NCBI GenBank assembly: GCA_039804105.1 | Contig: JBDRZU010000001.1 | Location: 480,001 to 544,000 of the forward strand | Direction: 5' to 3' | Origin: a candidate division WOR-3 bacterium | GTDB taxonomy: Bacteria > Hydrothermota > 32-111 | Length of the DNA: 64,000 nucleotides | In this document: positions 16,157 to 51,220 of the stretch, piece by piece | Position numbering within the stretch: the stretch's first letter is position 1 | Layout of the letters: the number at the start of each line of letters is the position of its first letter | Notes under the pieces: model-generated | Database searches by the model: none | What the model saw: the letters and a program-made list of their open reading frames with translations, nothing else | What the model was told of the DNA's origin: nothing | Made by a program: the position numbers and the translations under genes

Positions 16157-16189
16157 ACAAAAATGTCAAAAAGTCAAGCACCGTCCCCA
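16157..16189. repeat. Cassette-end motif, copy 1
   Basis: ACAAAAATGTCAAAAAGTCAAGCACCGTCCCCA; matches 45374..45407 with 3 substitutions and 1 indel. Confidence 0.8.
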
Positions 16190-16199
16190 GGTTTTTTTT

Positions 16200-18299
16200 T
16201 TATTCAAATTTCAATAACTTTTTTACAATTGTATGTGAAGGTGTTTTCAATTTTATAAAATAAATTCCTTTTTTTAAATTTTTTACATTCGTTTTATGTT
16301 TACCCCCTTTAGATTCTTCTCTTATTACTTCTCTTCCCGTTATATCGTATAACATCAACATTCCTTCAGTAAGGGTATTCCATATTATGTATTGTTCAGA
16401 TATTTCGATTTTTAAATCATTATTTTCAACTTCAATTAAAAGTTTTTTTTCATTATTTCCCGCCGGACTAAAATTACCATTTATTACTGTTGGATTAAAG
16501 CATGGAACCTTCAATAAAGTTTCCTGTATTGTTAAACTATCTGGATAGACTGTATCTCCAACCAATACTGTGGAAGATGTATCTCTGAATTCTATCCTTA
16601 ACCTATCCTTCTGAATTAGTCGAGGAAGCCAGTAAGCACTATCTATATTTAACCATGAATGTTCATTGTTTAATTGTAATATTTTATCTATATTACTGCT
16701 ATCTATTTTTGGTTGATTGGTTAGACCATGGAAATATATTATTACATAATCATCACCATCAACTCCACTTTGTGCTACAAAACCATCTGATGCTTTAATG
16801 CTGTCTATCCTGCATTCAACTCCTAATCCTCCCTTCAATGTTGTTATATATTTGTTTTTATCTCCATATACATACATTTCGCTCTGATAGTATCCCGTAC
16901 TTTCTGCATAAAAACCTGTTTTGATTTTCATACTATCATCAGGATATATTTTTAATGGATAAGTTAGTTCAGTATCGACAAAAAACTCCTGATTTTTAAA
17001 CCTTATTGAATCAACTAAAATTGTATCTCTCCCTTCGTTGAAAATAAAAAAACTATCACTTGTTAAAGAATCTGGAACCATAGTATTACCATAGATTATT
17101 GTATCCGGAGAATTTAACATTCTCCACTCAATTATATATGTCTTCATCATATCTATTCCATATGTATATGGGAGAAGAGGGTCTGATTCCCCACTCCATA
17201 TTATCTCTTTTCTGCAATTTCCATTCATATCAGCCATTATCACACTGCTTCCGGAAAATGTATCATTATCCATACTCCATATCAATTCAAAACTATCATT
17301 TCCCATTACCTTGAATATCTCTAAAATAGATCCAGCACAAAGAACCAGTTCATCGTATCCATCGCCATCCATATCACCTGCTGTTCCCCCACAACCACTT
17401 CCCACTGAACCTGATGGTCCATAATCTTTTCTTTGCCAGCGACTCCATTTTTTAAAATAGTGATTGTCACCATCACATTCAAACAAGTCATGTAACCATT
17501 CGGCAGGAGATTGATCATACGCTTTTCCACCAAATACATAATCATTATAGCCATCTTTGTCAATATCCCCTATTAATTTAACATAATAAGTACCAGCAAG
17601 AGTTGTGTCAAAAACCGAAACAAATGAATCCTGATTCATATTCTTTGATTCATACACTTTGTGTCCTAAATGAGTCATTGTAACAATATCTAAAAGTGAA
17701 TCATTGTCCATATATCCGATATCCATCGCATAAACTTTTCTTTTAAATGTATCTTTGTAAGCGAAATAATAACTATCATCACTATCGCTATCCATATAAA
17801 ACCAGCCATAAGGGTCATTATAAGTTGTATTAGGGTTCGGCGCTCCAAATATCCTGTTTTTCCCATCTCCTTTCAACAATGAGGTAACCCCAAAACAATG
17901 ATATTCCCCATTTTCATTCATTTTCAATTTCCAAGTCCACTCTTTACTTATACTATCTTTATATAGCTGTTCAATTATAAATATCATATTACTGTCTGAA
18001 GGATTTATTCCCATTAAATCCAAAAATCCATCACTATCAAAATCACCAATTCCTCTTATCCAACCGCCTTTAATAAAATCCAAAAATTCAAATTGATATT
18101 TACTCCATTTATAAATAGCATTATTATAGTCTCCTGTATAACAAAGCATTGACAGTAAAGTATCCGTTTCTCTATTTATAATAATGGGAGAATAAATATT
18201 AGGCTCAAAACTTCCAAATGGTATTTCTTGCTTTATCTCTATTACAGAAAATAATGCCATTGATCCCAAAATCAATACCAATAGTATCATCCATTTCAT
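16200..18299 (-). CDS. Secreted FG-GAP/VCBS-like repeat protein with Ig-like domain and C-terminal sorting tail (cassette 1, gene B; start revised to 18299)
   Basis: Signal peptide MKWMILLVLILGSMALFS from ATG 18299; GDFDSDG.LD, GDIDKDGYND, GDMDGDGYDEL, ADMNGN..KEI repeats; tail LYDITGREV...LKKGIYFIKL...KKLLK. Paralog of 45412..47550. Confidence 0.8.
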   Translation of the reverse strand: MKWMILLVLILGSMALFSVIEIKQEIPFGSFEPNIYSPIIINRETDTLLSMLCYTGDYNNAIYKWSKYQFEFLDFIKGGWIRGIGDFDSDGFLDLMGINPSDSNMIFIIEQLYKDSISKEWTWKLKMNENGEYHCFGVTSLLKGDGKNRIFGAPNPNTTYNDPYGWFYMDSDSDDSYYFAYKDTFKRKVYAMDIGYMDNDSLLDIVTMTHLGHKVYESKNMNQDSFVSVFDTTLAGTYYVKLIGDIDKDGYNDYVFGGKAYDQSPAEWLHDLFECDGDNHYFKKWSRWQRKDYGPSGSVGSGCGGTAGDMDGDGYDELVLCAGSILEIFKVMGNDSFELIWSMDNDTFSGSSVIMADMNGNCRKEIIWSGESDPLLPYTYGIDMMKTYIIEWRMLNSPDTIIYGNTMVPDSLTSDSFFIFNEGRDTILVDSIRFKNQEFFVDTELTYPLKIYPDDSMKIKTGFYAESTGYYQSEMYVYGDKNKYITTLKGGLGVECRIDSIKASDGFVAQSGVDGDDYVIIYFHGLTNQPKIDSSNIDKILQLNNEHSWLNIDSAYWLPRLIQKDRLRIEFRDTSSTVLVGDTVYPDSLTIQETLLKVPCFNPTVINGNFSPAGNNEKKLLIEVENNDLKIEISEQYIIWNTLTEGMLMLYDITGREVIREESKGGKHKTNVKNLKKGIYFIKLKTPSHTIVKKLLKFE

Positions 18300-18324
18300 T
18301 GGAGGGAATTTTATTCCCTCCAAT
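18298..18324. promoter_or_regulatory. Perfect 12-bp hairpin overlapping the start of gene B
   Basis: ATTGGAGGGAAT-TTT-ATTCCCTCCAAT; on the mRNA the GGAGG pairs with an arm that ends in the AT of the ATG. On the + strand it is followed by a T run (terminator-like). Confidence 0.75.
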
Positions 18325-18342
18325 AGTTTTTTTAGCTTAATT

Positions 18343-21300
18343 CTATTTAATAAAACCAATCTTACCACTCTCCTTTCCATATTTGCTTTCAAATATATAA
18401 AAATAAATGCCGCTTGACAAACCAGTTGTTTTTCCATCAACTCTTATGATATTTTCTCCTTTCTGACCATTCATTTTTTTTGAGTAAATCTCTCTACCCA
18501 TTATATTAAAAATTTTTAACTCAATCAACCCACTTTCAGGAAGCAAAAAATTAAATTCTATCTTTTTGTCTGAAAATCCTGCTCCTCTCCATTTATATTT
18601 AAATTCGCCAACACTTTCATTAATTTTTCCAAATTGCAAATAACTATTTTTAGTAGCACTGAAATCTTTAATTATTTTATCATATTCGTAAAGATGAATA
18701 TTTATGGTTCTATTTGGATTACCTCTTATCCTATCGATGTTTAATTTTATATCTCCATCCTGATAATCTGATTTATCAAGAACAAAGAATGTTCTGTTTT
18801 CTTTACCTTCTATAAGCTTCACAAATTCTTCTTCTATACTTAATGCATAAGGTTGATTTTTGTTATTATTTGTCGTAATAATTTCAAGTAGATAATCCAT
18901 CGCAGGATTCAGACATTCTATTTGAGCACTCAATCTTTCAATAGGTTGTCTACTCTGTGGCGAAGGTAAAAAATTTCTCAGTACACTTTCAGAAATACTG
19001 GTTAATGTATCAGTTAAAGTAATACTCCTTGGATTTTCCAGTATTGGATAGATCGAATCAGTATAAATCCTAAAATTTGTTCCACCACATTCTATTTTAT
19101 AGTGGTTATTATGCCCTTCGACCCATAAAGCTCTTATTTTAGTATTTTTTATATATACATCCTGCCCAGTTGATGGGTTAAGTCCTATTGAAAGGGATAT
19201 AGAATCAACTAACACAGGATAGAAACAACTATCCAATCCTTTATTTAAAGTTACATTCTCAACTTCATTTGAAAATTCTTGAGTATTTATTCTGACCAAT
19301 TTGTCATCTCCAACATATGTAATAATTGAATTGTAAATACGTGGATATTTCATATCATTAACAACATTATCAACAATTTTTTTAAATGAATTATCAAGAT
19401 ATATTTCATTTCTAAAATGTAAATCATTATATTCCTGCCAAATTATTTTGTTGGTATCATTAAATGATTTCAGGTTAACATCTGGATTAAAGGAATAAAA
19501 AGTTGAATTTGAAACCTTTTCTGAAATAAGCCAAATATTTTTTGTAGCATCAAACTTTTTTCTAATAATCTCTCCATTTGCATCTTGAAAGACAATTTCA
19601 GGTCCTAATTTATTATTTGTTGTGGTAACACCTATACACGAAAAATCATAAGGTTTCACAAGATAATTGTTTTTATCCAGTTCACCTTCTTCACCTATTA
19701 GTTGAATAAATTCAGGGATTGTTAAATTATTATACATAAATGAAGTATATTGCAATGTCCATTGATTATCAATTGTCAGATGATCCGTTGTTATACCTGC
19801 AAACCATAATTGTGACAAATTAGCAGGATTCGCTAATATTGAAGGGCTTCGATATCCCATAACAGTCGGTATTAAAGGAACTGTCCATGGGGATGTTGAA
19901 TATGCATATTGCCATGTTTCTCCATCTTTCCAGACAGCAGCTATTCCACCTGAAATTGTCGTTATACTAACATCTCTACCACTACCAATTTTTTTAAGTT
20001 CCCAATTGTTTCCAAAATCCTTGCTCCTACCATATACAATACTATCACCATCAGAATAAGCCAGATGAAGTAACCCATTTTGTTTAACCAGATGGGTGCT
20101 ACTGCTAGGGCCCAGGGCAACATTTGTTGTTGACCACATAAATGGTTTCAAGGTATCAACCGCTGTAAAATATCCTAATTTATCTGCTCTTATTATTACT
20201 GGATAGGTTGTATTTGTTCTTAAATTGAAGTATGCTTTTCCATTGCTATCTGTGTATTTGATTAGTGTTGCTTTTTCAATTGACCCATCATCATTTACCG
20301 TATCATAAGTGATTGTTATTTTCACACTATCTATTCCAAAAAGATCGATATTCTTGTTTCGATAACAAGCATAAACATTAAAAGTATTATTTTTAAGAAC
20401 AGAAATTTCAGTTGGAGAAAACAAATATATTGTATCTCTTGCTACCAGAGGTAAAGTATCTGAAAAAAATGGACATTTTAACGCTCCACCTCTTAATGCA
20501 TAAGCCTTTACAACTAAAGTGTCTGTTTTAAGTGTTTCTCCATCAAATACTAAATTACCAAAGGGAATTTTATATGTTATTCCTTTCAAAACATTGTAAA
20601 GAGTATCCTTTAGATGATATTCAGCATTTTTATCTGGATCATATAATTCAATAACAATGGTATCTCTATATCCTGTATAATTATACAACGAATTAAGTTC
20701 AACATACACCCTGTCACCATTTACAAAAGTTTCAATTTGTTGACTATCTACAGGCAAAACAGACACCGGTAAAATTCCTATTTTTACAGAAAAAGGAGTA
20801 TAAAATCTCTTATAATATTGAAAATAACCGTCTTCAGGATTGAAACTATCAATAATACCTGTAATAAACTCAAATGTTTGGGGTTTATATTCAGTCAACC
20901 CATAAAATTTAAACATTTGATATTTAAGATCTGAGGAAAAAGGAAAATATTTTAAACTATCATGATAAGAACCGTCAAGATATGGATAATAACTATAATT
21001 TCCTGTAGTTTCTGAACCAGGAATAACCATTAAATATTTTATTGTATTGAACATTTTAATCATATCATCTTTTCCAAAAACATCATCAGGGAATTTTTTG
21101 TGATAATCGTTCATAAAAATAAATGAAAGTCCACCATGAGAGATATCATCCGCTTTTCCTTTAACATAATTGACAGAATATGCCCAGAGAAAGGTGGAAT
21201 CAGTGCCATTTCCAAAAACAAAAGTAGAGTCATCAATGTTATTTCTGAAATAATGAGCAAATTTTTTCGTCTGTTCTAAATATATATTTTCTTTTGTGAG

Positions 21301-22177
21301 CTCATAAAGAAATAGTCCCGCATCTGCCATAGTTGAATTTTTATTAAAAGGGTGCCTCATCTTTGCTCTAAAAGGATATTGTGGGTAAAAAGTGTCAATT
21401 TTAACTTCATCATTTATAAAGTTAATATCAATTACATCAAATATGTGTTTCCACGCCCCACAATATGAATCGTTATTTATTGTTGTATCCTGAAACCATT
21501 GAATATATTCATTATAACTCTCTTTACAATCATATATCAATTTTGACCTGTAAGACCAACCTCCAATTTCATCCCATTTGCCAATAGTGTCCATTGCAAT
21601 TACAAATCTTAAAATTGTTTGTAAAATTCTTCCTGTTAAAACCAGATCTGGGTAAGCAAAATATTTTGCAGGAATTCCATGAGAAGGTCCATAATAAATA
21701 AAACGATCCAAGGAAGAGTCATAACCACATATATGGATATTATAGGTAAACAATGAATCATTTCTTTCAATCAATGAATATTTTAACCCTCTCCATGTTT
21801 TTAATGTTCTTTCTGTTCCACTGCTATCTATATAACTATGGACTCCTCTTCGATCATCCCTTAAAGATAAGATTAAATTTATATTATTCGCTATAGAATT
21901 AGCGATTTCAAAATCATATTTATGTTTTAATTTATAGATTGATTTTTCAATTCCATAGCAAAAACTCCATGAAATTTCTCCATAATCATTACCATCTTGT
22001 TGAATATTATCTAAATTTAATTCAAAACTTAAATCACTATAATCCCAACAATTGATGTCTTCAATACTCAAGTTATCTCCAAAACAAAAAATTAATGCAA
22101 AACCTAAAATGAAAACAAAAACTATCTGTAAGTATCGGGGGGGGGGCGATAGTTAGAATTTTTGAAATACTCTTCAT
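18343..22177 (-). CDS. Large secreted modular protein (cassette 1, gene A), frameshifted at a C10 tract: putative phase-variable gene in OFF state
   Basis: AAGGAGGT-ATT-ATG at 22177 is 106 nt (one base out of frame) upstream of the track ORF start at 22071. C9 gives MKSISKILTIAPPRYLQIVFVFILGFALIFCFG-DNLSIED (signal peptide). Body has Asp-box-like SKDFGNNW and tail IFNIMGREI...LSSGIYFY. Confidence 0.8.
22137..22146. repeat. G10 (C10 on coding strand) homopolymer
   Basis: Directly visible; the only long G/C run noticed in the window. Confidence 0.97.
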
Positions 22178-22199
22178 AATACCTCCTTTTATGATTTAA

Positions 22200-22227
22200 A
22201 TTTTAAATGACCTTTTTAAAAAGTCAA
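22200..22227 (-). promoter_or_regulatory. Promoter of cassette 1
   Basis: TTGACT-N16-TAAAAT upstream of AAGGAGGT and ATG 22177. Confidence 0.65.
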
Positions 22228-22295
22228 TAGTTGTATGTATTGTTCTTATGAAAAATTAAAATTTGTTGTGAGTTTAACAAAAAATTTTTCTTCCC

Positions 22296-22323
22296 TTGAA
22301 TAATCCTTCTAAATTACTATAAT
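22296..22323 (+). promoter_or_regulatory. Promoter of SSS symporter operon (leaderless or near-leaderless)
   Basis: TTGAAT-N16-TATAAT, ATG 8 nt downstream, no SD. Confidence 0.6.
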
Positions 22324-22331
22324 TTAAAATT

Positions 22332-23720
22332 ATGATCCAGAGTTTAGATATTTTTGTGATTTTTTTATTTTTCTTTTTTCTGTTAATGATTTCCTATTTT
22401 GCATCAAAAAATGTGAAAGGGAAAGATTCTTTTTTGATCAACAGCAGGAAAACCGGACTATTCCTTTTCATAGCAACAAATGTATCAACATGGTATGGTG
22501 GAATACTTGGAGTTGGTGAATTCACTTACAATTATGGAATTGTTAACTGGGTAACTCAGGGAGTTCCATATTATATTTTTGGTTTCCTTTTCGCTTTTCT
22601 TTTCGCAAAAAGGATAAGGGAAACTTCACTTATAACTATACCGCAAAAGATGGAAAAAGAGTATGGGAAAAAAGTTTCAATATTATCAGCTCTGATTGTT
22701 CTTATTCTTTCATCCCCAGCTCCATATATTTTAATGTTAGGTATAATCTTTGCAAAAATATTTTCAATCAACCTTACATTTTCAATGATAATCTCACTTC
22801 TATTTATACTTCCATTCATACTTAAAGGAGGATTCGTAACAGATATAAAAACTGATCTTTTCCAATTTTTCGTTATGTTTTTGGGTTTTATCCTACTTTT
22901 GTTATTCTCTTATAAAAATATCGGTGATTTTACAATTCTGAAGGAAAATTTACCAAAAGAACATCTATCAGTTACAGGAGGACTTCCCTTCTTTTATGTT
23001 ATCGTCTGGTTTTTTATAGCATCATGGACTTTTGTAGATCCAGGTTTCCATCAGAGATGTTACAGTGCAAAAGATGGAAATGTAGCAAGAAATGGGATAT
23101 TAATATCAATACTTTTTTGGATGCTTTTCGATTTTTTAACAACAACAACAGCACTCTATTCAAGGATAATCTTTCCATCATTGGAATTCCCCCAATGGTC
23201 TTATCTTTTCCTCGCTGATAAAATAATGCCTTCTGGATTTAAAGGTCTATTTTATGCTGCAATATTTGCAACAGTAATTTCTACCTTAAACTCACTTCTC
23301 GTTATAAGTGGAACAACCTTCTCCTTAGACATTGTAAAAAAATTCAAGGATGATATAGACCACAAGAAGGTTACGATTTGGGGAATAATTGTTTCAACTA
23401 TAGTTGGATTTATACTCGCCATTCTTGTTCCATCGGTTGTAAACCTCTGGTACCTTATAGGTTCAGTTTGTATACCTGGTCTTATTTTACCTTTACTTGG
23501 AGCTTATTACAAAAAAATTAAAATATCAAAAAGAATAACATTTTTTGAAATTATTTTTGGATTCTTTGTTCCAATAATTTGGATTTTCATAAGAAAAAGG
23601 TTGGAAAAGAATTCAATTTTATACCTTGTTGAACCCATGTTCGCAGGGCTTATATTTTCATCAATAATTCATATTTATGGGATGATGGAAAATGAAAAGA
23701 AGAAAAATGAGTTTGATTGA
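22332..23720 (+). CDS. Sodium:solute symporter (SSS) family protein
   Basis: About 13 TM segments; ATNVSTWYGG, GG...D..TD..QF, DPGFHQRCYSAK, A.FA..ISTLNS. Confidence 0.88.
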   Translation: MIQSLDIFVIFLFFFFLLMISYFASKNVKGKDSFLINSRKTGLFLFIATNVSTWYGGILGVGEFTYNYGIVNWVTQGVPYYIFGFLFAFLFAKRIRETSLITIPQKMEKEYGKKVSILSALIVLILSSPAPYILMLGIIFAKIFSINLTFSMIISLLFILPFILKGGFVTDIKTDLFQFFVMFLGFILLLLFSYKNIGDFTILKENLPKEHLSVTGGLPFFYVIVWFFIASWTFVDPGFHQRCYSAKDGNVARNGILISILFWMLFDFLTTTTALYSRIIFPSLEFPQWSYLFLADKIMPSGFKGLFYAAIFATVISTLNSLLVISGTTFSLDIVKKFKDDIDHKKVTIWGIIVSTIVGFILAILVPSVVNLWYLIGSVCIPGLILPLLGAYYKKIKISKRITFFEIIFGFFVPIIWIFIRKRLEKNSILYLVEPMFAGLIFSSIIHIYGMMENEKKKNEFD

Positions 23721-24336
23721 AGAAATTTTTAATTCTGTAACACATGGTTTAGGTTTTCTGCTTAGTATTACTGGACTTGTTCTATGTGTTATATTTTCTG
23801 TTAAAGTGAAAAATGTTTATGCGATCGTTTCATCTTCGATATATGGTGCTTCGTTGATCCTCCTTTACATAAGTTCAACACTTTACCACTCTTTTCCGGA
23901 AGGAAATGTTAAAAAAATTTTTAAATTTTTCGATCATACATCAATATATATTCTCATAGCAGGTACATACACTCCATTTACTCTCTTACCTCTTAGAGGC
24001 CCTCTCGGATGGACAATTTTTGGTGTAATTTGGGGATTAGCTCTTTTCGGAATAGTTTTCAAGACATTTTTCATAAACAAAACAGACATAATTTCCACAA
24101 TAATATATATACTGATGGGATGGATGATAGTAATAGCCATAAAACAGGTTTACCTATCGGTTCCCAAAATATCCTTTATCTTTCTTGTTATAGGTGGTAT
24201 CTCTTACACTATAGGGACAATTTTCTATATTCTTGACAGATTATTCTTCTTCCATATAGTTTGGCATATATTCGTTCTAATCGGTTCAATAACCCATTTC
24301 TTTTCAATTTTTCTTTATATAAAATCTTTAAGTTGA
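23692..24336 (+). CDS. Hemolysin III / PAQR family membrane protein (start may be 23707)
   Basis: EEIFNSVTHG, STLYH, DH.SIY.LIAGTYTPF, H.VWH.FV..GS..H. Confidence 0.92.
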   Translation: MKRRKMSLIEEIFNSVTHGLGFLLSITGLVLCVIFSVKVKNVYAIVSSSIYGASLILLYISSTLYHSFPEGNVKKIFKFFDHTSIYILIAGTYTPFTLLPLRGPLGWTIFGVIWGLALFGIVFKTFFINKTDIISTIIYILMGWMIVIAIKQVYLSVPKISFIFLVIGGISYTIGTIFYILDRLFFFHIVWHIFVLIGSITHFFSIFLYIKSLS

Positions 24337-24337
24337 G

Positions 24338-25144
24338 GTGAATATGAAATCAAAAAAAGAGTTGGAACTTGAAAAAACTATAATTTCAAAACTTAGCGGA
24401 AAATGCCTTGAAACAGCCAAGTTAATTTTTCAGGATAAAGAGATAGAATACCTGATGAACTACTCAAACAATGTTTCGATAAAAAGGTTAGGGTTCAACG
24501 ATCATGGGCCTGTTCATATGAAAAGAGCATGTCTTAACTCACTTTTGATGTTCGAACTTTTACATAACGCTGGAGTCAAATTTAACCTTGAAAATGAAGG
24601 TATTGGAAATGTTGATGATAGCAAAATAGCTGTAATTATAGCATCTCTCTTGCATGACATAGGGATGAGTGTTAGCAGAGAAAACCATGAGATCTATTCT
24701 TCACTTATTGGATTAAATATAATCGATAGGATACTTGAGAAAATTTACCAGCACGAATTTGAAAAACATATAATAGTCAGGTCTATGGTTATCGAAGGTA
24801 TAATAGGACATATGGCAACAAAAAGTATAAATTCACTTGAAGCAGGACTCGTCCTTATAGGTGATGGTTGCGACATGGAAAAAGGCAGGGCGAGAATCAC
24901 ATCAATGATCCAAAGAAAACCAAGAGTAGGTGATATTCACAAATACTCTGCATCTGCGATCCAAACAGTCAGTATAGAAAAAGGTATCATAAAACCTATA
25001 AAGATAACTGTTCTTATGAGAGAATCGGTTGGATTCTTCCAGATTGAAGAGGTACTTTTCCCAAAAATAAGTTCAAGTCCCGTAAAACCTTACATAGAGC
25101 TTTTTGCAGGGGTTATTGGAGATGAACTTATGCAGTATCTATAA
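24338..25144 (+). CDS. HD-superfamily metal-dependent phosphohydrolase
   Basis: RLGFNDHG.VH, LLHDIGM...RE.HE, GDGCDMEKGRAR, DIH.YSA.AI. Confidence 0.85.
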   Translation: MNMKSKKELELEKTIISKLSGKCLETAKLIFQDKEIEYLMNYSNNVSIKRLGFNDHGPVHMKRACLNSLLMFELLHNAGVKFNLENEGIGNVDDSKIAVIIASLLHDIGMSVSRENHEIYSSLIGLNIIDRILEKIYQHEFEKHIIVRSMVIEGIIGHMATKSINSLEAGLVLIGDGCDMEKGRARITSMIQRKPRVGDIHKYSASAIQTVSIEKGIIKPIKITVLMRESVGFFQIEEVLFPKISSSPVKPYIELFAGVIGDELMQYL

Positions 25145-25146
25145 TA

Positions 25147-25174
25147 TTGACATTTTGAAATAAAAAGTTAAATT
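25147..25174 (+). promoter_or_regulatory. Promoter of GNAT gene (leaderless)
   Basis: TTGACA-N16-TAAATT, ATG 6 nt after the -10, no SD. Confidence 0.55.
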
Positions 25175-25180
25175 ATATTT

Positions 25181-29728: not shown

Positions 29729-29817
29729 AGGTTTTATATATTATCATTTTTTTCTGTGTTGTAAAGAGACAAAATTACCTATTGATTTTTTTTATCAATA
29801 AATTTATAATTAACTTG

Positions 29818-29845
29818 TTGACAAAAGGGAAACTGAATTTATAAT
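29818..29845 (+). promoter_or_regulatory. Promoter of two-component operon
   Basis: Perfect TTGACA-N16-TATAAT; a second TTGATT-N17-TATAAT lies just upstream. Confidence 0.7.
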
Positions 29846-29867
29846 AAATTAAAAAGTGGGAGTTTAA

Positions 29868-31804: not shown

Positions 31805-31813
31805 GGAGGTTTT

Positions 31814-32053: not shown

Positions 32054-32060
32054 AAAATTT

Positions 32061-32081: not shown

Positions 32082-32088
32082 TTCCCAC

Positions 32089-32116: not shown

Positions 32117-32125
32117 TGTAAAGTT

Positions 32126-33163: not shown

Positions 33164-33166
33164 AAT

Positions 33167-41737: not shown

Positions 41738-43554
41738 TATTTTTTCTGTTTGACTATGTAGTTGCCTATAACAAGAACATCAACACAGTTGTTTAGAAGT
41801 GATCTGACAGCATCAACAGGAGAACAGAGGATAGGTTCCTCATGCATGTTGAAACTCGTATTCACAAAAAGTGGAAGTCCTGTGAGTTCTTTATATCTTT
41901 TTAAAAGTTTGTAGTATAATGGATTTTGCTCTTCTTTTACAGTCTGAGGTCTTGCTGTGTTATCGACATGGTTAACCGCTTCAATCTGTTTTCTCCACTC
42001 TTCCTTCACATTGAAAGTTATCGTCATAAAGTAGGATGGATAACTTCCCTTTTCAAAATTTTCAAAAACATTTTTGGCATCCTCATAGATACATGATGGT
42101 GCAAATGGCATAAATTCTGTTCTTCTTAATCTTTTGTTTAACCAATCATTTATTTTTTTGTCAGTTGGGTCAAAAAGTATCGAGCGATTCCCAAGTGCTC
42201 TTGGGCCATATTCCATTCTTCCCTGAAACCATCCAACAACAACTTTATCTTTGATCATAAGTGCTGTTTCTTCGATTATGTTTTCACTCTTTCGAAATTC
42301 TATTTTATCAGAGAAATCTTTTAAAACTTTTAAAATCTCATCATCATTATATTCTGGGCCATAGTAAACATTGTCGATTGTAAAAGGCAAAAATCTTTCA
42401 CCTCTCTTTTCAAGTTCTTCAGTCCATTTGACATAACATGCACCTGTTGATGTACCTCCATCACCCATATTCGGATGGATAAAAACAGATTCTACACCTT
42501 CGATTTCAAGAACCCTCTGGTTGACCTTCACATTTGAGAATAGTCCACCAGCAAGAACTATATCTTTGATTCCTGTATTTTTTATATGTGGTTCAATAAA
42601 TTTTACAACAAGATCCTCTGTTAACTTCTGTGCTGCTGCCGCTATATCCTCTTTTGATTCTTTTGAACAGTGTTTCTTCAAAAAATCAAGATAAAGGTTT
42701 GTATAGTTATGTCCATAATATTTGCCTTTCAAAAAGTCCTTCAACTGCTTCATCCTTAAAGAATCACCTTTTAAATTACCAGCAAGGGGAGAATAAAATC
42801 TTTTTCTATCATCTGTGATATCTATCATCTGTCTGAAAAGATCATAAAGTTTATCTGGATTCCCATAGGCAGCAAGTCCTGTTATTTTTCCTTCATGTCT
42901 ATTTCTTTTAAAACCAAGAAATTTTGTTATTGCAGAGTAAAACCTTCCAACCGAATATATATCCTCTACTTCAAGAATCCTTTTTATCTTTCCATCTTCA
43001 CCGATTGAAATCGTTGCTGAGAGTCCGTCACCTGCTCCATCCATGGTAACGATAAGCGCCTTATTTTTCCCACCTTCATAATAACATGAAGCAGCATGGC
43101 AGAGATGATGTTCAACCGTTTCAAGTGTGAATTCAGTAAGACCACACTTCTTCAAAGCATCCGTTATAGATTTTTTAGCATATTCCGATGCAAGTTTCCA
43201 GTACTTTTTTTCTCCAATAATTTTTCTGTACAGTATCTCTTTTATAGTATCAAACTTTTTTCTGTTATCGATTTCGTTTGATGGATCTATGGTTCCACTT
43301 CTTTTCACTATCAGATCAGTATAATGGAATGGGCTTCGTAAAAGATCGTTATCAAATGAAAGAACAACCTTTGAGATATCTTTTCCATCTACTTTCGCAA
43401 CTTTCATACATTCTTTTATTGCTCCATATGGAAAACCAAAATGGAACTTTACCCTTGAAACCCTTTCTTCAGCGATGGCTGTAACAATTCTTCCATCCTT
43501 TAAAAGTGATGCAGTTGCATCGTGCCCTATATTAAGACCAAGAATATACATCAA
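41737..43554 (-). CDS. Carbamoyltransferase, NodU/CmcH family
   Basis: ILG.N.GHD, AEER.SR.K, HHLCHAAS, DG.GD, EGKITGLAAYG, GRME.GPRALGNRSIL, NTSFN.H.EP. Confidence 0.95.
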   Translation of the reverse strand: MMYILGLNIGHDATASLLKDGRIVTAIAEERVSRVKFHFGFPYGAIKECMKVAKVDGKDISKVVLSFDNDLLRSPFHYTDLIVKRSGTIDPSNEIDNRKKFDTIKEILYRKIIGEKKYWKLASEYAKKSITDALKKCGLTEFTLETVEHHLCHAASCYYEGGKNKALIVTMDGAGDGLSATISIGEDGKIKRILEVEDIYSVGRFYSAITKFLGFKRNRHEGKITGLAAYGNPDKLYDLFRQMIDITDDRKRFYSPLAGNLKGDSLRMKQLKDFLKGKYYGHNYTNLYLDFLKKHCSKESKEDIAAAAQKLTEDLVVKFIEPHIKNTGIKDIVLAGGLFSNVKVNQRVLEIEGVESVFIHPNMGDGGTSTGACYVKWTEELEKRGERFLPFTIDNVYYGPEYNDDEILKVLKDFSDKIEFRKSENIIEETALMIKDKVVVGWFQGRMEYGPRALGNRSILFDPTDKKINDWLNKRLRRTEFMPFAPSCIYEDAKNVFENFEKGSYPSYFMTITFNVKEEWRKQIEAVNHVDNTARPQTVKEEQNPLYYKLLKRYKELTGLPLFVNTSFNMHEEPILCSPVDAVRSLLNNCVDVLVIGNYIVKQKK

Positions 43555-43576
43555 ACCTCCTGAATTTTAACATTTT

Positions 43577-43604
43577 ATTTTATCAAAAAAAGAAGTTTTA
43601 TCAA
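43577..43604 (-). promoter_or_regulatory. Promoter of carbamoyltransferase operon
   Basis: TTGATA-N16-TAAAAT upstream of AGGAGG. Confidence 0.55.
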
Positions 43605-43765
43605 TATTAAAAATAAAAGGCAACAATTTTTTAAGGTTTTTTTATTTGAAAAATTTCATCCTCTATTCTTTATAATCTCCTTTTCATCCATATCTGCAAC
43701 ATGATGACTGAAATGTGTATCTATATGTTCATTTCTGAAACCTGCTTCACCTTCAATGTTTAAAT

Positions 43766-45310
43766 TTATTTTATTATTCTTATTTTCTTAGTAATGGTTT
43801 TGTTAATTTCATAATTACATCTTACAATATAAACACCAGCAGGAATATTAAGTTTTAATTTTATTTGATGTTTTCTATTTAAAATACCATTATAGAGATT
43901 CATAATTTTTCTACCCTGAATATCATAAAGATCTATATTAAAATTCATCGATTTGTCTGAACTTAGAGAGATATTTATAAAATCAGTAAAAATATCATTT
44001 TTTACATCAAAGTAAATTTCGTTACTTGATCCTTTATCAAGTTCATCTATTGATGCTAAACTACCGCTTTTCCAAAAATTATAAATTTTCCAGCTGTTTT
44101 GAATTATTTCATCAGGTGTTTTATTCATTACAAATGCTACGACATAATTAATTGATTGATTATACTCTATATCAAAAGGCCCGGTCGATATTATAAATCG
44201 CTTATCACCTTTTTCTTCTTCTTTTTCAGTATGTCCAGGATAACCTATGACTCCAACACCCCAATCGGGAAAAGGGCTATATGATGAACCAGGATCTTCA
44301 GGATTAAACGATATAAAATCATATCCTGCTAAAGAAAGATATTTTTTAATCTTATTTGAAGGATCTGTCTCGATTGTTAATTTTCTAAATGATGTTAAAC
44401 CTAATTCTTCTCCTTCTTTTATAATATATACTCCATTCCCATATAAATCCATATCTTTCTTTGCGGGAGGTGTTTCAAGAACTACAAAAGATGGTATCCC
44501 CGGTAAACTATGCCATCCAGGTTCACTATCAAGTTGAAATTGATATACTGTATTCATTCTTATCATAGTATCCTTATCAGAAATGAATTTAACAGTCATC
44601 GTATCAATGAAACCCAATAAGTCATTACTTTTATTAATTGATTCATCACCGATATCAAGATCAAAAGAGAGTGCAGCATAACAATCTTTTATTTTCTTTT
44701 TATCTTCCCTTGTATTTTGTATTTTAAATTTGAATATAATAATATCTTTCAGAGGTTCTGATGTCCATGCATAAGAAAATTGAAAAACTTCAATTCCAAT
44801 TGGATGATTTTCAAAACTAAAATGATATGAACTATCCTTATCAGAGTACCATGAATAAGAATCCTGATCAGAAAAAATGGAATCTTTACCTGTGATATTT
44901 TTAATAGGCCAGCCATAACCATTATTATCACTGGTTGAAATATAAACTATCAGTTTTGGGTCTGTATAATAGGCAGTATCAGAAAAATTACCGGGTATAA
45001 ATTCGGATACACCTGCACTTGGATAATATCCACTCGTAACCAGAGTATCTCTTAATGTATCTTTTCCACTGACCAATGTATCTACGAGCGAACCGAACCA
45101 TAAGCCACTTCCGAAAAAATATGTTTCATCAGGATAACCTGCAGGCCAATAAGCACCTCCATTGCCACTAAAAAAATCCATACCTATCACTCCAAAATTC
45201 GTTATACAAATATGATAATTATTTATATCAAGCCATTTTGAATCCCAATCAGAAAATAGAAAGATTGAAACAAACAAAGAAATAATTATGACTGACACTG
45301 ATTTTTTCAT
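43766..45310 (-). CDS. Secreted protein with C-terminal Por/T9SS-like sorting tail
   Basis: Signal peptide; INN....TN.G, G..WP, F..GLW.G, Q.SYAW, D.DIG, GDKR...S.GPF; tail LYDIQGRKI...PAGVYIV...KKI.IIK. Confidence 0.75.
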   Translation of the reverse strand: MKKSVSVIIISLFVSIFLFSDWDSKWLDINNYHICITNFGVIGMDFFSGNGGAYWPAGYPDETYFFGSGLWFGSLVDTLVSGKDTLRDTLVTSGYYPSAGVSEFIPGNFSDTAYYTDPKLIVYISTSDNNGYGWPIKNITGKDSIFSDQDSYSWYSDKDSSYHFSFENHPIGIEVFQFSYAWTSEPLKDIIIFKFKIQNTREDKKKIKDCYAALSFDLDIGDESINKSNDLLGFIDTMTVKFISDKDTMIRMNTVYQFQLDSEPGWHSLPGIPSFVVLETPPAKKDMDLYGNGVYIIKEGEELGLTSFRKLTIETDPSNKIKKYLSLAGYDFISFNPEDPGSSYSPFPDWGVGVIGYPGHTEKEEEKGDKRFIISTGPFDIEYNQSINYVVAFVMNKTPDEIIQNSWKIYNFWKSGSLASIDELDKGSSNEIYFDVKNDIFTDFINISLSSDKSMNFNIDLYDIQGRKIMNLYNGILNRKHQIKLKLNIPAGVYIVRCNYEINKTITKKIRIIK

Positions 45311-45373
45311 AAGACCCTCCTTTTTTAAATCCCGATTATTATAACTTCTAACTGATAGTTTTTACACACTCAC

Positions 45374-45407
45374 ACAAAAAATGTCAAAAAGTCAAACACC
45401 GTTTCCA
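45374..45407. repeat. Cassette-end motif, copy 2 (left arm of inverted repeat around cassette 2)
   Basis: ACAAAAAATGTCAAAAAGTCAAACACCGTTTCCA, 4 nt from the stop of gene B. Confidence 0.8.
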
Positions 45408-45411
45408 AATT

Positions 45412-47550
45412 TTATCTTATCTTTATCATTTTTTCTGTTAGTGTTTGATTTTCTGTTTTCAATTTTATAAAGTATACACCATTACTTAACTTTCTTAAAT
45501 CTGTCTTATATTCCCCTGAAATATCTGTCTCTTCTCTTATTATCTTTCTCCCTGTTAAATCATATACAACCAATTCCCCTCTAGTATTCGTATTCCATAT
45601 TATATCTTGTCCTTCAATCTTTATCTTTTCCTCTTTGTCTATATCTGATATCTTATCTCTCTCTCTAAAACCATTAGGTCCAAAACTACCTGTAATAATA
45701 ATTTGTTTCTTCCACTTTTCCTGACACCACGTTCCTGTAATTGTCTGACTGTCTGTATATACCGTATCACCTACTTTAATCGTTGGTATTTTTCCATTTG
45801 TGTCAAAATATACATAAAACCTGTCTCCATCAGGATAGCTCAACCACTTCGTCAATTCTATTCCCCATCCATTTACTTCCCATTCATCTCCTCCACTCAA
45901 TCTCAATATGCTGTCTATGTTGCTTTTGTTTATATCGGGTTTGTTTGTCCACCAATTAAAGTAAAAAACAATTATATCATCATTATCTATCCCGCTTATT
46001 GGATTCACTCCATCATATGCTTTTATTGAGTCCACTATTAGTTCCAATTTATTGCCCGCTTTTAAATATTCTTTATATGAAGTTTTATCTACATACACAT
46101 TCATACTATCAAAATATCTACCCATACTGTCTCCTTTGAACCACACCTTTACACTTGTGCTATCATTACCTTTTATCGTCAGAGGCCATATTATAGTATC
46201 TACTCCAAAATAAGCACTATTTATTGTTATTGAATCTATACTTATTTCCGCATCGCTTTCATTTCTTATAACTAAAACTTTGTAAATAGTATCTCCATCA
46301 TCACTGTTCCCTATCAATAATGTGTCTCCTTCCATACTCCATCTCTTCATCTCAAATATCCTTGTACATTGTCCTGTCTGGCCTACTCCACTAAATATTA
46401 ACTCATCTATACCATTCTTATTGAAGTCATTACACCTAAGATGACTCTGAATAGTATATGTTGTAGGATCGGTCCACTCCCACATCATTTCAAACTGGTT
46501 ATCTCCAATTGATTCCCACACTTCTATGTGTCTACCACCACATATCACAAATTCATTTAAACCATCTCCATCTGTATCTCCATAATCAATATCTCCACTC
46601 GAAGTATATATATAGTCAGTGGCCACCTCAAAATCCCTTCGCCAGATAAGATCATATACTCCCGTTCCGTTCTTGTCTTCATAAATGAAATAACCATACG
46701 ATACATATCCCGACCAAGTAAGATAATTAATTTGATATTTCATTATTTCGTTGGTTCCATCCCTATCTATATCTGGAAGAATCAGCAGGGCCTCTGCTGG
46801 CCCTGCCCCTTCACTTAATGTTTCCAAGTATCTTATAAAAGTATCATCATCTATTGTCGTTGATTCATATCTGTAAATATAGTTTGATAATCCTATTATT
46901 ACATCTGTTAATCCATCTTCATCTATATCTCCTATATCGATTGCATATCCTGACCGAGTACTCTCTGCAAATGTATTTAGTAACTCATATCGATTATCTC
47001 CTGTACAGGTATAATAATACCATCCATACGCTCTTGATTGTGTTGTTAACCATGGTATCCCTATTCCAAATATCCTATTTACTCCATCATGCTTAAGTTT
47101 GTTGGTTATACCAATGTAATAACATGAGTTATGTATTGTATCAGATGTCCAGACCAATGAATCAAAAAATGATGTTGGGGAACTTTGTTCATATACCCAT
47201 AACCTTTTACTATCAGTTTTCCACAGAACAACATCTTTTAATCCATCTCCATCTAAATCTCCTATTCCTTGTATTCCTATATATAGATAATTTGTATCCA
47301 ATGGTATCGAATCTATTAAATCAAAACCATTCTTACCATTATATTCATAGAATAAAATCGCTATTGAATTATCTATTACAATCTCTTCATTCCCATCATT
47401 ATCATAATCTATGCCCTTCTGAGAGATAAAATTGAAATGACCGTGTATTCCTCTATCAAGATATGCATATTGGTGAAATACTAATGAACTAATCTTATCG
47501 GTTATTATCAGCTCCATTAGCAATATTATTATAAAAAAAATCTTTTTCAT
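45412..47550 (-). CDS. Secreted FG-GAP/VCBS-like repeat protein with Ig-like domain and sorting tail (cassette 2, gene B)
   Basis: DYDNDGNEEI, GDLDGDGLKD, GDIDEDGLTD, GDTDGDGLNEF repeats; shares DSIKA.DG.....G.D.DD, TN.P.I..SNID.IL.L and VGDTVY.DS.TI with 16200..18299; tail VYDLTGRKI...LSNGVYFIKL. Confidence 0.82.
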   Translation of the reverse strand: MKKIFFIIILLMELIITDKISSLVFHQYAYLDRGIHGHFNFISQKGIDYDNDGNEEIVIDNSIAILFYEYNGKNGFDLIDSIPLDTNYLYIGIQGIGDLDGDGLKDVVLWKTDSKRLWVYEQSSPTSFFDSLVWTSDTIHNSCYYIGITNKLKHDGVNRIFGIGIPWLTTQSRAYGWYYYTCTGDNRYELLNTFAESTRSGYAIDIGDIDEDGLTDVIIGLSNYIYRYESTTIDDDTFIRYLETLSEGAGPAEALLILPDIDRDGTNEIMKYQINYLTWSGYVSYGYFIYEDKNGTGVYDLIWRRDFEVATDYIYTSSGDIDYGDTDGDGLNEFVICGGRHIEVWESIGDNQFEMMWEWTDPTTYTIQSHLRCNDFNKNGIDELIFSGVGQTGQCTRIFEMKRWSMEGDTLLIGNSDDGDTIYKVLVIRNESDAEISIDSITINSAYFGVDTIIWPLTIKGNDSTSVKVWFKGDSMGRYFDSMNVYVDKTSYKEYLKAGNKLELIVDSIKAYDGVNPISGIDNDDIIVFYFNWWTNKPDINKSNIDSILRLSGGDEWEVNGWGIELTKWLSYPDGDRFYVYFDTNGKIPTIKVGDTVYTDSQTITGTWCQEKWKKQIIITGSFGPNGFRERDKISDIDKEEKIKIEGQDIIWNTNTRGELVVYDLTGRKIIREETDISGEYKTDLRKLSNGVYFIKLKTENQTLTEKMIKIR

Positions 47551-47560
47551 AATTGTTACC

Positions 47561-50500
47561 TTATCTTATTATATTTATTTTCTTGGTCTGAATACTATTA
47601 CCATCTTTTATCTTAACAAAATAAATCCCTGATGCATTTATTCCATTTAATATCACCTTATTAACCCCAGATTTTACTTCTCTTTTTACATTTATTATCT
47701 TGCTACCTCTTACATCATATACCATAATTTCTATCTCTCTTGCTTCAGTTGATATATAATTGACATATACATCTTCCCTCATTGAAAATAAATTCTTTGT
47801 TTTCATTTTTGTTTCGTCATCATTTACCTGTGTGAAAACTTTTATTTTATTTAATGCTGATATTATTCCCTCTCCTTCTGTTTCATATTGATAAACCAGA
47901 ACATCTGCAATTCTGTTTGGATTACCTCTCTTCCTGTCTATACTCACAACAACTTTATAATCCTCATATACCTCTTTTGGAAGCAATATTTCAGTTGTAT
48001 CTGGTTTATTTGCTTGTCCTGTTACCACTGCATATACTTCTCCATCTATCTGTATAACCTGTGACATTACCGGACTTCCCTCCGAAGTTATTACTTTTAT
48101 CGTATAATTCATCTCTGGATTTAGTCCATTTATAGTTGTATTCAATCTTTCTACTGGTATTCTTGATGATATATATTCATACAGCGGTGATATCGTTACC
48201 CTGTCTATCGTATCCTGTGGCTGAGATATCAAATATGGAATTATAGCCGGAGAATAATCCTTTATCAGCCATTTTATCCTGTAATTCCCATTGCTTCCCT
48301 CACTCCAGATATGATAACCTTTTATCTTTGTTGCAAATATTTGTTTTGTCTCAAACTCAGTTGAATGTATTGAATCTGCTCCCTTATATATACATATATC
48401 AGTTCCTCCATAATTTGTTATAAGTTTATTTTTATCACTAATATAATTTATTAGGATACCATTACTTGTTTTAGGATACTCATTCTTCCCTGTTGTTGTA
48501 TTTATTTTCACTGCACCTGCATCCAGTATTCCTTTTTTCAATCTTCTACTGTAAATATCATTTGTTCCGTCTGGATTGATTACTTCATAAGTAAATGTTG
48601 TTACCTCTCCATAGTAATCTGTTGTAGGTGCATTACAGATCTGGTTGGGATTATTTATAATTTTTCTACCCAGCCAAATTTTTAATTTTAAGTCCCATGT
48701 TTTAATAGCATATTCATTTAATGTATCTATAAATCCTATAAGATGTGAAACATATATACCATCATAGTACAATGAAAGTATAGGTGAATTCATTGGAATT
48801 TCATTACAAGATGTATCTCCTAAATATGAAACAACTGTATCGTAATAAATATCTTCTGTATTCAATTCATCCATACTCACCAATATGTAATCCCCTGCTT
48901 TACTCTGAAGATAACGATGATTTATATAGCCAAGATATGTTTTACCTATTGTGTAATTATATCCTAAAACTGGCTCACTCCACCATAATGTTGGAGACAC
49001 CATTGAATCCACTGGTGTCCAAGGACTCGTTCTAATTGTATAATAATATGAACTCGATCCTTTTCTCATTACCGATATCAATCCACTTGATGTCCTAGTT
49101 AATACAGGGTCTGTCCCTTCTCCTAATATCTCTAAATCCCATGTCTGTCCAAAATCTGTACTCTTACCAAATACAACACTATCTCCTGTTGTATACACCA
49201 TATTCATCTCATCTGTATTTGGCTTTCTGACTAAGTGCTCTTGATTGTTTTTGCCAAATGTTTCCGGTGTTTTGCTCCATAAATATACATCTATTGTTGA
49301 AATATATGGAACATAACCTACCCCATCTATAGTTAAATACAAAGGTCTGTTTGACTTTAAATATGCGGGGATGAACACTTGTCCAAATTTATTTGTTATT
49401 CCTTTAAAATAAAACCCATTAGGTTGACTATCTGTTAATAAAACTTCAAATCCAGAAATTCCTTTTATCGTATCAACTTCATCCAATACTCTAATATATA
49501 TTTTATTATCTTTTAAAACTGGGACATCTTTAGGTTTTAAAACATTTTTAAATATTTTATAATCAACTCTTAGTTCTTCTTTTTCTGTTATTATTTGTTC
49601 AGAACCATCTACCAATGGTATTTTCACTTCTGCCACTACATAAATTGGAAATGTATCCATTTTTAAAAGTTCGAAATTCACTTCTCCTGAATCATTAGGG
49701 ATTTTCTTATCACTTATCAAATCTCCCTTTCTATCTTCCAAATATATTATTGCATTACTATAAGATTCTTTATGACCATAATCCTTTGTCAGTGAAATCA
49801 GCAAATTAGTAGTATCTTCATATTTCAAAACATCTGGGGTAACAGTTAAATTGAATTTATATCCATCTTTTAAATGTTCAATTACCAGTAATCCATTTTT
49901 GTAAAATGCAGAATATATTATATTATTAACTGGAAATGTTCCTATTGCACCATAAGCAAAATTTTTGTCACCATAATTGCCAATTAACTTAATATTGGAA
50001 GGAGCTGAAACATCAAATATTATTAACCCAAAGGATTTTAACCCTATATAGGCTACTTTTTCTAAATCGTTTTTTACTACATAAACATTTCCTTCCTCTG
50101 GAACATCAATTGGATAATTATTATATTGTGTAACAATATAGGGACTATTAATATTTAATATATTCATTATTATAAAACCATTTAATTTATCTATCACATA
50201 AGCATAATCCCCTTCAACAAAAACATCCCAGGGTATACCTAGTTTAATACTTTTAACTATTGAGGGAAAAAATTTATTCGAAATATTAACTATATGTAAA
50301 TAACCAAGCTCATCTGCTAAATATGCATAATTACCTGCCACATGTAAACCATGCACACATACTCCATCTATACTTGATAATTTTTGATAATTATAATCAG
50401 TAATTTTATATATAATAAAATTTCTCTCTGTTCCCACATATGCATAATCAACATAATTATTTTCACTCTCATACTCTCGCACCACATAAACTTCTTTCAC

Positions 50501-50981
50501 ATGATCTGAAACAACACGGTATTTCAATGAAAGATCATAAGGATTAGATATATCCAAAACTATTAACCCACAATCATCCCATGCCACATAGGCATTGTTA
50601 CCCACCACTGTAATTTTCAATGCGTAAGATCCAGGTGATTCTTTTATTTTAAAACTATCTACAATAACCGGTTCAAAATAATTTGACACATTGGCCACTT
50701 TAACCCCACCAGCACCATCAGCAACATATGCAAATGAATCAACAACATAAACATCCTCTGCAAATCCTGTATCAAGCCAACCAATCCAAGTGCAATTCAA
50801 TGAATCTACTGAAGCTAGGGTTGAATAAGAGCCCTCACCAAAAACAATTAAACAACTAAAAATCAAGAGGAAAAAAATTCCTTTTCTAAACCAAATCACT
50901 GGTTTTGTAGAGAGAGAGAGAGAGAGAGTAAACTATTGGTCGGTTTACCTTTTTAATCCTTCTACACAATCTCTTTTTCAT
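47561..50981 (-). CDS. Large secreted modular protein (cassette 2, gene A) with N-terminal LVIVD repeats, frameshifted at a (CT)10 tract: putative phase-variable gene in OFF state
   Basis: AAGGAGGTAAA-ATG at 50981 is 82 nt upstream of and out of frame with the track GTG at 50899; (CT)11 or (CT)8 joins them. Body has Asp-box STDFGQTW and tail VYDVRGSKI...ASGIYFVKI...KKI.IIR. Confidence 0.8.
50909..50928. repeat. (AG)10 / (CT)10 dinucleotide microsatellite
   Basis: Directly visible; the only long dinucleotide repeat noticed in the window. Confidence 0.97.
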
Positions 50982-51023
50982 TTTACCTCCTTTTGGTTTT
51001 ATCAGCTTTTTGTTAACATAAAG

Positions 51024-51047
51024 AATAATTAAGTCAATAATTAAGTC
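51024..51047. repeat. 12-bp tandem duplication in the cassette 2 promoter region
   Basis: (AATAATTAAGTC)2 creates two TTGACT hexamers on the minus strand. Confidence 0.8.
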
Positions 51048-51195
51048 AAAAATATTGTATCTTTTTTTAATTACTGTGATTAATTTTTACTTTTATATTC
51101 AATCTCATTTTATATTCCTATAAAAATTTATTTTACTCCAGCAAAATTTTTTTGTCAAGTGGTCTGTTTAATTTACTTTTTACAATATTTAGGAA

Positions 51196-51220
51196 GGTGT
51201 TTGACTTTTTAACTTTTTTT
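51196..51220 (+). repeat. Cassette-end motif, copy 3 (right arm of inverted repeat around cassette 2)
   Basis: GGTGTTTGACTTTTTAACTTTTTTT versus reverse complement of 45376..45400 GGTGTTTGACTTTTTGACATTTTTT: 23/25 identical. Confidence 0.7.

Follow-up and report, generated by a model that had tools for sequence, protein, structure and literature searches.

The window analyzed here, 64,000 nucleotides of a candidate division WOR-3 bacterium (G000:C1:480001-544000), carries two of the four related two-gene cassettes found in its source genome. Each cassette consists of a gene A, interrupted near its 5' end by a simple sequence repeat, and a downstream gene B. In our view these are mobile contingency loci encoding a pair of surface proteins that work as a module and leave the cell by a type IX-like route, a reading to which we give a probability of roughly 0.6. 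The source genome, G000, comprises 1.81 Mb at 30% GC in two contigs and is 85% complete, and the sequencing runs containing this DNA are hot-spring metagenomes. All sequence material consisted of metagenome assemblies or contigs, in which rare length variants get lost.

A long repeat in the 5' coding region was found in 4 of 1415 long open reading frames (ORFs) of G000, and these four are the A genes, with tracts of C10, (CT)10, (CT)18 and (AGAAG)5. At the same thresholds long repeats number seven in G000 overall, and C10 is the sole G/C run longer than 8 in 1.81 Mb. Each of the four A genes is exactly one repeat unit from a full ORF. A1 extends to 1277 amino acids (aa) with one C fewer and A2 to 1140 aa with one unit more, in line with the 1140-1280 aa that a first-pass annotation, made from the letters of the window, had proposed for A in frame. 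That annotation had described two minus-strand cassettes in the same order (promoter, Shine-Dalgarno sequence (SD) with ATG, repeat, A, B), and both are present as described. Cassettes 3 (C1:574843-579941, (CT)18) and 4 (C1:1229244-1234851, (AGAAG)5) lie outside the window, each one unit off frame. A search of G000 with an A profile found only the four A genes, and the four cassettes support the earlier suggestion of a repertoire per genome. In cassette 1 the native frame from the ATG at 22177 reaches a stop after 34 codons, with no alternative start ahead of the signal-peptide core. Frames of 900-1400 codons are open behind the tract in divergent paralogues. A frame-setting 5' repeat, of a length far above background and confined to surface genes, is expected of contingency genes, as is tract length variation among near-identical alleles, seen here as C7, C8 or C10 in copies of cassette 1 (C9 was never seen) and as a shorter CT tract in G001.

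Leaders were tabulated for 27 genes, of which 25 had a tract and a readable frame, one had an N in the tract and one had no tract. All 25 readable tract-bearing leaders are off, with an offset of +1 in 12 and +2 in 13. Three additional copies (L184, L196 and L198) are off as well, and rows identical to counted ones were left out. After dropping four leaders with a second start and merging two identical pairs, 19 off leaders remain; were one third of such leaders on, this outcome would have a probability of ~5e-4, though kinship weakens this figure. The only on-phase tract, in L167, belongs to a remnant with A deleted and B broken. The ratio of nonsynonymous to synonymous substitution rates (dN/dS) between off genes was 0.12-0.25 in five comparisons, and 0.12-0.17 at dS ≥1 between two off genes. 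Judged by this ratio, which averages over history and possibly includes unswitched ancestors, the off A genes are under purifying selection. The 25 of 25 off leaders, the tract variation and the purifying selection fit phase variation with a rare on state. Because gene callers place A starts at internal codons, dropping the signal peptide, such a switch is invisible in protein databases.

Repeats recur after the start codon of homologues, a point that the first-pass annotation had put forward for checking: poly-C before a conserved 9-base motif, CT, AGAAG/AAGAG and poly-G were found, as was CTAT in a genome from a different family (L152). The annotation had also taken differing repeats as a sign of independent acquisition. 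Several types do fit repeated acquisition, but poly-C and CT leaders are also reused ahead of different heads, which makes the leader another module subject to shuffling. In L166 and L167 the leader is fused almost directly to B and most of A is deleted, the C tract being interrupted in L166. Poly-C leader cassettes in records labelled Woesearchaeota and Gammaproteobacteria (L196 and L198) are probably mis-binned contigs. A search of viral contigs for the poly-C leader gave no result.

Assembly errors at repeats are hardly credible as the source of the frameshifts. Metagenome assemblies were used throughout and contigs do break or carry N at tracts (L061, L164), but the off state recurs in many separate assemblies and also at di-, tetra- and pentanucleotide units. 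A Logan contig from run X1, from which this DNA may stem, runs through (CT)10 gap-free and concurs, and error cannot explain long tracts confined to A genes. It is also very unlikely that the A genes are recent pseudogenes whose repeats are fragile sites, broken once without useful reversion. The lack of any intact on allele among those seen and the decayed cassettes (L166, L167, L184, L120 and L141) would agree with such decay; however, the 900-1400-codon frames behind the tract are still open, dN/dS is 0.12-0.17 at dS ≥1, off cassettes have spread between species almost unchanged, and other G000 genes are without such tracts. A third alternative is that the tracts are recoding or re-initiation sites, every cell making a little A through ribosomal frameshifting, transcript slippage or re-initiation with no DNA switch. 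Assemblies always out of frame and genes nonetheless conserved would both be accounted for in this manner, CCC-C is a known +1 frameshift context, and some tracts are followed by SD-less or SD-bearing second starts. We regard recoding as unlikely because both offsets are about equally common (12 and 13), even among copies of one orthologue (C7, C8, C10), the tracts use units of four lengths (1, 2, 4 and 5), and tract length shifts in otherwise near-identical DNA.

A1 and A2 align over about 720 C-terminal columns with 25% identity (E 4e-44) and their N-termini have no significant match to each other, which bears out the earlier description of a common C-terminus under unrelated heads. The A1 head weakly resembles GH76 mannanases (E 7e-6), with no result in other sequence searches, and the A2 head consists of LVIVD repeats. 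The 500-residue scaffold has no sequence match in Pfam, NCBIfam or PDB, and a word-pattern search for it in a collection of genome contigs gave no result. Its model (predicted local distance difference test score, pLDDT, 84) is almost all beta, with a beta-propeller at residues ~50-395 followed by a beta-sandwich. Structurally it is nearest to propeller lectins and lyases (Z 28.5, root-mean-square deviation 2.7, 295 aligned, 9% identity), with scores near those of many other propellers, so that no function can be assigned; in the ESM Atlas the best match, at 0.76, was under the useful range.

Scaffold-bearing ORFs collected from G000, its family and one genome farther away, 43 in all, form 10 head groups, among them a C25 peptidase with propeptide and a PGAP1-like hydrolase. 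The heads also include GH76-like, LVIVD and lipase types. A profile search of 1.84 billion representatives gave 480 scaffold relatives, 38 of them at E <1e-30; the named ones carry the labels WOR-3 or Ca. Edwardsbacteria, and 37 relatives that were scanned add S8, beta-helix, NHL, SBBP, BNR and FG-GAP heads. Four fully supported sister pairs in the scaffold tree (n=26) bear different heads, the LVIVD head requires at least five changes and the GH76-like head three, and heads are still more clustered than shuffled labels. A3 and A4 have ~90% identical scaffolds under different heads, and L043 and L067 have a 93% identical head on unlike scaffolds. The question raised by the first-pass annotation, whether heads vary on a common scaffold, is thus answered by the 10 head groups and by sister scaffolds with different heads.

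Gene B had been described as encoding a paralogous FG-GAP protein with a sorting tail. The FG-GAP and Por_Secre_tail domains were confirmed, and B1 shares 35% identity with B2 (E 1e-88). In the model of B (pLDDT 82) an FG-GAP propeller is joined to immunoglobulin (Ig)-like domains, with a resemblance to integrin alpha, LGI1 and other proteins. The parts of B that stay constant are the propeller and tail alone, the middle domains being optional, and the signal peptide and tail of B are its own, separate from those of A. The C-terminal Ig and DSIKA-type domain is a separate mobile domain, which also ends three non-cassette proteins (G000:C1:471936-472811, C1:1270997-1271869 and C2:243063-243917), and one non-cassette copy has a transposase end repeat (described below) just upstream.

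The scaffold is present in 10 of 12 other family genomes and in 44 of 250 phylum genomes (five candidates scored per genome). Where downstream sequence is available within the family, B follows A at 27 of 32 loci, and the five exceptions are one subgroup. Forty distant loci were picked by B score, one added for an adjacency already seen, and two end too soon; A is directly upstream of B in 27 of the 38 informative loci. Of 21 distant A genes, two of them known to be adjacent beforehand, nine have B next, eight do not and four are uninformative. The order of A then B is held in at least five other families, independent of the head. Linkage is therefore conserved (27 of 32 family loci), but the expectation that A and B always co-occur was too strong (exceptions at 5 of 32 family and 8 of 17 informative distant loci). 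Four B genes with no A directly upstream (L106, L108, L109 and L125) have a 200-residue N-terminal extension similar to a portion of the A propeller (E 6e-15 to 6e-40 with an iterated profile, weak with the first profile) and are possible natural A-B fusions.

A strong hairpin after the A stop was found at 21 of 27 family junctions, compared with 63 of 981 operon-like G000 junctions (-10 kcal/mol), and at 28 of 38 distant junctions, compared with 3 of 32 local controls (-15 kcal/mol; some loci overlap). It may serve in RNA protection, ratio control or antisense termination. At the L107, L110, L118 and L122 junctions, past the hairpin, B apparently starts at a non-ATG codon behind a good SD, which suggests deliberately low B translation.

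A real possibility, which we hold below even odds, is that the switch exists but A and B are merely co-regulated, non-binding cargo, such as an enzyme or adhesin with a lectin-like helper. Each has its own signal peptide and sorting tail, orphan A, orphan B and A-B-B arrays occur, and the correlation of A and B identities (rho 0.73) would be expected from adjacency alone. However, the order of A then B across at least five other families, whatever the head, suggests that B is linked to the scaffold and not to the substrate of the head, and the A-propeller-like N-terminal piece of the four B genes without upstream A is a second point against this possibility. For docking of A on B itself, we put the odds at about even.

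Given the lipase-like, C25, S8 protease and glycosidase-like heads and the mobility of the cassettes, A could also be considered a polymorphic antagonistic effector, with B as a delivery, chaperone or protective partner and the off bias resulting from harm to the producer. The type III restriction-modification (RM) and DarTG genes at the cassette 2 site in G001 would suit such a role. We nevertheless find it quite unlikely. Immunity proteins are typically head-specific, whereas B is one conserved exported family whatever the head, and B does not change with the head as in polymorphic toxin-immunity systems; B as an immunity protein was rejected. Many heads are LVIVD or BNR propellers with no known catalytic role, tract-free members are in frame, and A1, A2 and B2 had no PADLOC match.

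A signal peptide together with a type A C-terminal domain, as in type A cargo of the type IX secretion system (T9SS), was found in the cassette proteins, and export is predicted on this basis. The T9SS-type sorting tail has 49 matches in G000. The A1 tail scores 22.9 bits against the type A cut-off of 23, and A2, A3, A4, B1 and B2 are above the cut-off; A tails are weak in Por_Secre_tail scoring. G000 has an SprA-like gene at C1:154738 (29 bits, 1816-aa frame) and a PorV gene at C1:419678 (E 5e-18). GldN and PorP/SprF had no match in G000 with the queries used, for which controls were silent. A T9SS translocon and shuttle with no GldM, GldN or PorP match possibly represent a reduced or divergent type IX system in the lineage. 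From this complement we infer that the cassette proteins would leave the cell by a type IX-like route.

Comparison of genomes indicates that the cassettes insert at variable sites and pass between species. Cassette 2 and its passenger gene form a 7.65-kb insertion, and other G001 and G002 cassettes sit at sites empty in G000. Cassette 1 in G002 and G003 is nearly 100% identical to the window, with flanks down to 77-85% (81-85% in G003). Over 6231 bp, 2 substitutions separate the G002 copy from the window; the G003 copy likewise has 2, together with a change from C10 to C8. Recent transfer between species would be the simplest reading of these copies, and co-assembly of shared repeats may also have produced them. 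The G001 copy of cassette 3 differs by 2 substitutions and by the loss of 6 bases at the tract, and its SD is also mutated. Together with several kb on its flanks (G000:C1:574800-582684 against L055 and L061), cassette 3 has 99.7-99.9% identity in G001 and G002 and ~90% or less elsewhere, which suggests that another transfer between species took place recently. At the cassette 2 site G001 holds a type III RM system with a DarTG pair nested between Res and Mod (L203, G001:C1:43300-50800). The record L188 ('candidate division TA06 bacterium 32_111') has 94% identity to window 20628-23684. An X1 contig joining 43618 to 51250 has only 26 bases on one side and was not used as evidence.

The proposed mechanism is as follows. 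In this family the repeat between start codon and signal-peptide core sets the reading frame of A, and replication slippage would turn on A in a small fraction of the cells. Being on would mostly be selected against, through cost or exposure to phages or predators, and would be used often enough for purifying selection to act on the genes. A and B would be co-transcribed, with the junction hairpin setting the A:B ratio. The constant part of A would work with, and probably dock on, the B propeller, displaying the fused head. Heads, leaders and scaffolds recombine, and whole cassettes insert at variable sites.

Several observations weigh against this proposal. No intact cassette in the on phase was seen among the 25 readable leaders, and no CT-tract length variants were found in contigs of four runs, of which the X2 and X3 pieces do not reach the tract. 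Four tract-bearing A genes have a second SD and ATG with a full signal peptide 3' of the tract and may be constitutive, independent of the switch, and in several CT-type genes, A2 among them, leaky expression could arise from an in-frame start that has no SD. A tract is missing from nine family-level A genes whose 5' end is intact and whose start is in frame, and among the distant A genes inspected a tract was present in only 1; switching is therefore a lineage-specific addition to an older pair. Two close pairs gave dN/dS of 0.46 and 1.05, and decayed cassettes exist (L166, L167 and L184). Pairing is imperfect, with A lacking an adjacent B at the exceptional loci counted above, and with B lacking an upstream A at 7 of 38 distant loci in addition to the 4 fusion-like genes. 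Cassette 2 has no junction hairpin, and GldM had no match in the 85% complete G000, where controls were weak or silent.

Two further parts that had been assigned to the cassette, a shared 33-bp motif and a further sorting-tail protein, do not belong to it. The motif is real (0 of 100 shuffles) but has 42 matches genome-wide, and cassettes 3 and 4 do not have it between B and the gene that follows; a role as cassette regulator or site of recombination was rejected. A Y1 tyrosine transposase (G000:C1:1070318-1071296) has inverted copies on either side, and many solo copies are dispersed, which identifies the motif as a transposase end repeat spread over the genome. Cassette 2 is bordered by two copies that face outward, unlike those at the transposase. 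Inverted repeats around a Y1 tyrosine transposase are the TIRtron/TIRYT terminal-repeat arrangement (PMC3733652). The start of the motif fits the GGGGWSAS consensus of that paper at 7 of 8 positions, a likeness that covers the 33-bp motif only and not cassette movement. Of the exact end-repeat copies, 8 of 39 are within 300 bp of a T9SS-tail gene, such genes being ~4% of the total. The third gene was rejected as a fixed member since the gene after B varies among cassettes, an unrelated LVIVD protein and 514-aa protein standing in this position in the window.

Features of the window are listed in Table 1. The 21 kb separating the two cassettes (22.3-43.6 kb) contain ordinary genes. The promoter-like site of cassette 2 was the best of 53 sites in the scan. 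Because the real sequence scored little or not above shuffles in promoter scans, the window promoters are placed by position only. The tRNA-Met(CAT) bordering the cassette 1 insertion is at window 13700-13774 (-), with a perfect consensus promoter at 13814-13787.

Table 1. Features of cassettes 1 and 2 and of their insertions, in window coordinates
Feature	Position	Strand	Remarks
Cassette 1 insertion extent	13827..22342	.	Adjoins tRNA-Met(CAT); site empty in G004
Cassette 1 sigma-70-like promoter	22200..22227	-	TTGACT-16-TAAAAT; consensus match only
Cassette 1 Shine-Dalgarno and start	22175..22186	-	GGAGG + ATG (22177)
C10 tract	22137..22146	-	Off phase; near-identical copies elsewhere C7, C8 or C10
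Gene A1	18343..22177	-	Signal peptide, GH76-like helical-barrel head (weak match), propeller + beta-sandwich scaffold, T9SS-type tail; 1277 aa in frame
A1-B1 junction hairpin	18298..18324	-	-18.5 kcal/mol, z -4.6; no sense U-run; terminator-like on + strand
Gene B1	16200..18299	-	~699 aa; FG-GAP propeller, Ig-like domain, DSIKA-type domain, T9SS-type tail
Solo transposase end repeat	16158..16188	-	Genome-wide type, not cassette-specific
LVIVD-repeat T9SS-type cargo	13879..16095	-	Passenger gene of cassette 1 insertion
Cassette 2 insertion extent	43610..51270	.	Site empty in G002-G004; type III RM + DarTG in G001
Degenerate end-repeat copy	51194..51214	+	Upstream of cassette 2
Cassette 2 sigma-70-like promoter	51130..51158	-	TTGACA-17-TAAAAT; consensus match only
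Cassette 2 Shine-Dalgarno and start	50979..50990	-	GGAGG + ATG (50981)
(CT)10 tract	50909..50928	-	Off phase; in-frame GTG without SD at 50899, possible leak
Gene A2	47561..50981	-	Signal peptide, LVIVD propeller head, scaffold, T9SS-type tail; 1140 aa in frame
Gene B2	45412..47550	-	712 aa; FG-GAP propeller, Ig-like domain, DSIKA-type domain, T9SS-type tail
Solo transposase end repeat	45378..45406	-	After cassette 2
514-aa T9SS-type cargo	43766..45310	-	Passenger; homologue of gene after cassette 4, not of gene after cassette 1

The cassettes share individual traits with several known systems. Hop proteins are single outer-membrane barrel proteins of a pathogen. The Helicobacter pylori Hop adhesins (babA/babB/babC, sabA, oipA and hopZ) undergo CT-repeat 5' on/off switching at several loci and form recombination chimeras (PMC3960876). 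The likeness extends to paralogous surface genes at several loci, CT repeats in the 5' coding region and chimeras. Unlike the Hop adhesins, the cassettes encode a propeller-sandwich scaffold with a T9SS-type tail, take heads from unrelated enzyme and repeat families, include a partner gene and use five repeat types, with every intact copy seen off. No Hop-family Pfam or NCBIfam match was found in the cassette proteins, which are Hop-like in working and not members. Neisseria opa (CTCTT) and pilC (poly-G) are phase-variable through repeats in the signal peptide, and the pentamer of cassette 4 and the homopolymer of cassette 1 likewise stand between start codon and signal-peptide core; kinship in sequence or fold would not be expected, and the second gene and the domain-level exchange of heads are particular to the cassettes.

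Among secreted proteins, T9SS type A cargo (PF18962, TIGR04183, C25 gingipains) has in common with the cassettes a signal peptide with a sorting domain and modular heads, including C25 with propeptide, but not the 500-residue scaffold between head and tail or the conserved FG-GAP partner gene. T9SS type B cargo has a downstream PorP/SprF partner gene, an arrangement of cargo followed by dedicated partner that the cassettes resemble; B, however, is not a PorP/SprF barrel, being soluble, with an FG-GAP propeller and a type A tail. In cellulosomes, dockerin-bearing enzymes are encoded in stem-loop-tuned operons. A possible analogy would lie in varied catalytic heads, a constant docking module and ratio-setting intergenic hairpins, but the cassettes have no cohesin or dockerin domains and differ in folds and export route, and docking is here hypothetical. 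FG-GAP propellers are also found in integrin alpha, CRTAC1 and other proteins, and in the B model Ig-like domains come after the propeller. Integrin alpha tops the Foldseek matches of B (E 1e-12, template modelling score 0.37) with Z 24-25, though many unrelated propellers score alike (top Z 27.4). Unlike in the integrin heterodimer, the A model is not of integrin beta-type fold, and A has no vWA-type beta-I Pfam match.

The switch is thus of an already known kind. The module of scaffold and partner gene looks undescribed; the scaffold, the fixed partner gene and the junction hairpin are so judged because no match was found in the families tested or the literature searched. Searches on WOR-3 with phase variation or type IX secretion, and on type IX secretion with phase variation, simple sequence repeats or slipped-strand mispairing, found no description, subscription papers and preprint supplements being outside their coverage. 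More tentatively, A and B may be the two subunits of a display platform in general use in WOR-3 and related candidate phyla, in which any head would dock via the A scaffold on an integrin-alpha-like surface B at a hairpin-set ratio. One family would then have turned the platform into a silent-by-default, horizontally shared and shuffled library, each variant of which is displayed by rare cells only.

An unnamed 500-residue carrier scaffold with a linked partner gene organises a share of the T9SS-type cargo in the WOR-3 phylum, for which we found no study of this secretion route in the literature searched here. The cassettes also represent a multi-locus phase-variation repertoire in a free-living environmental lineage, in which 0 of 25 readable alleles are on despite their conservation and spread. 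Bet-hedging in uncultured bacteria becomes testable in this manner from deep metagenome reads alone and, if A and B dock, the pair might be usable as a modular display part.

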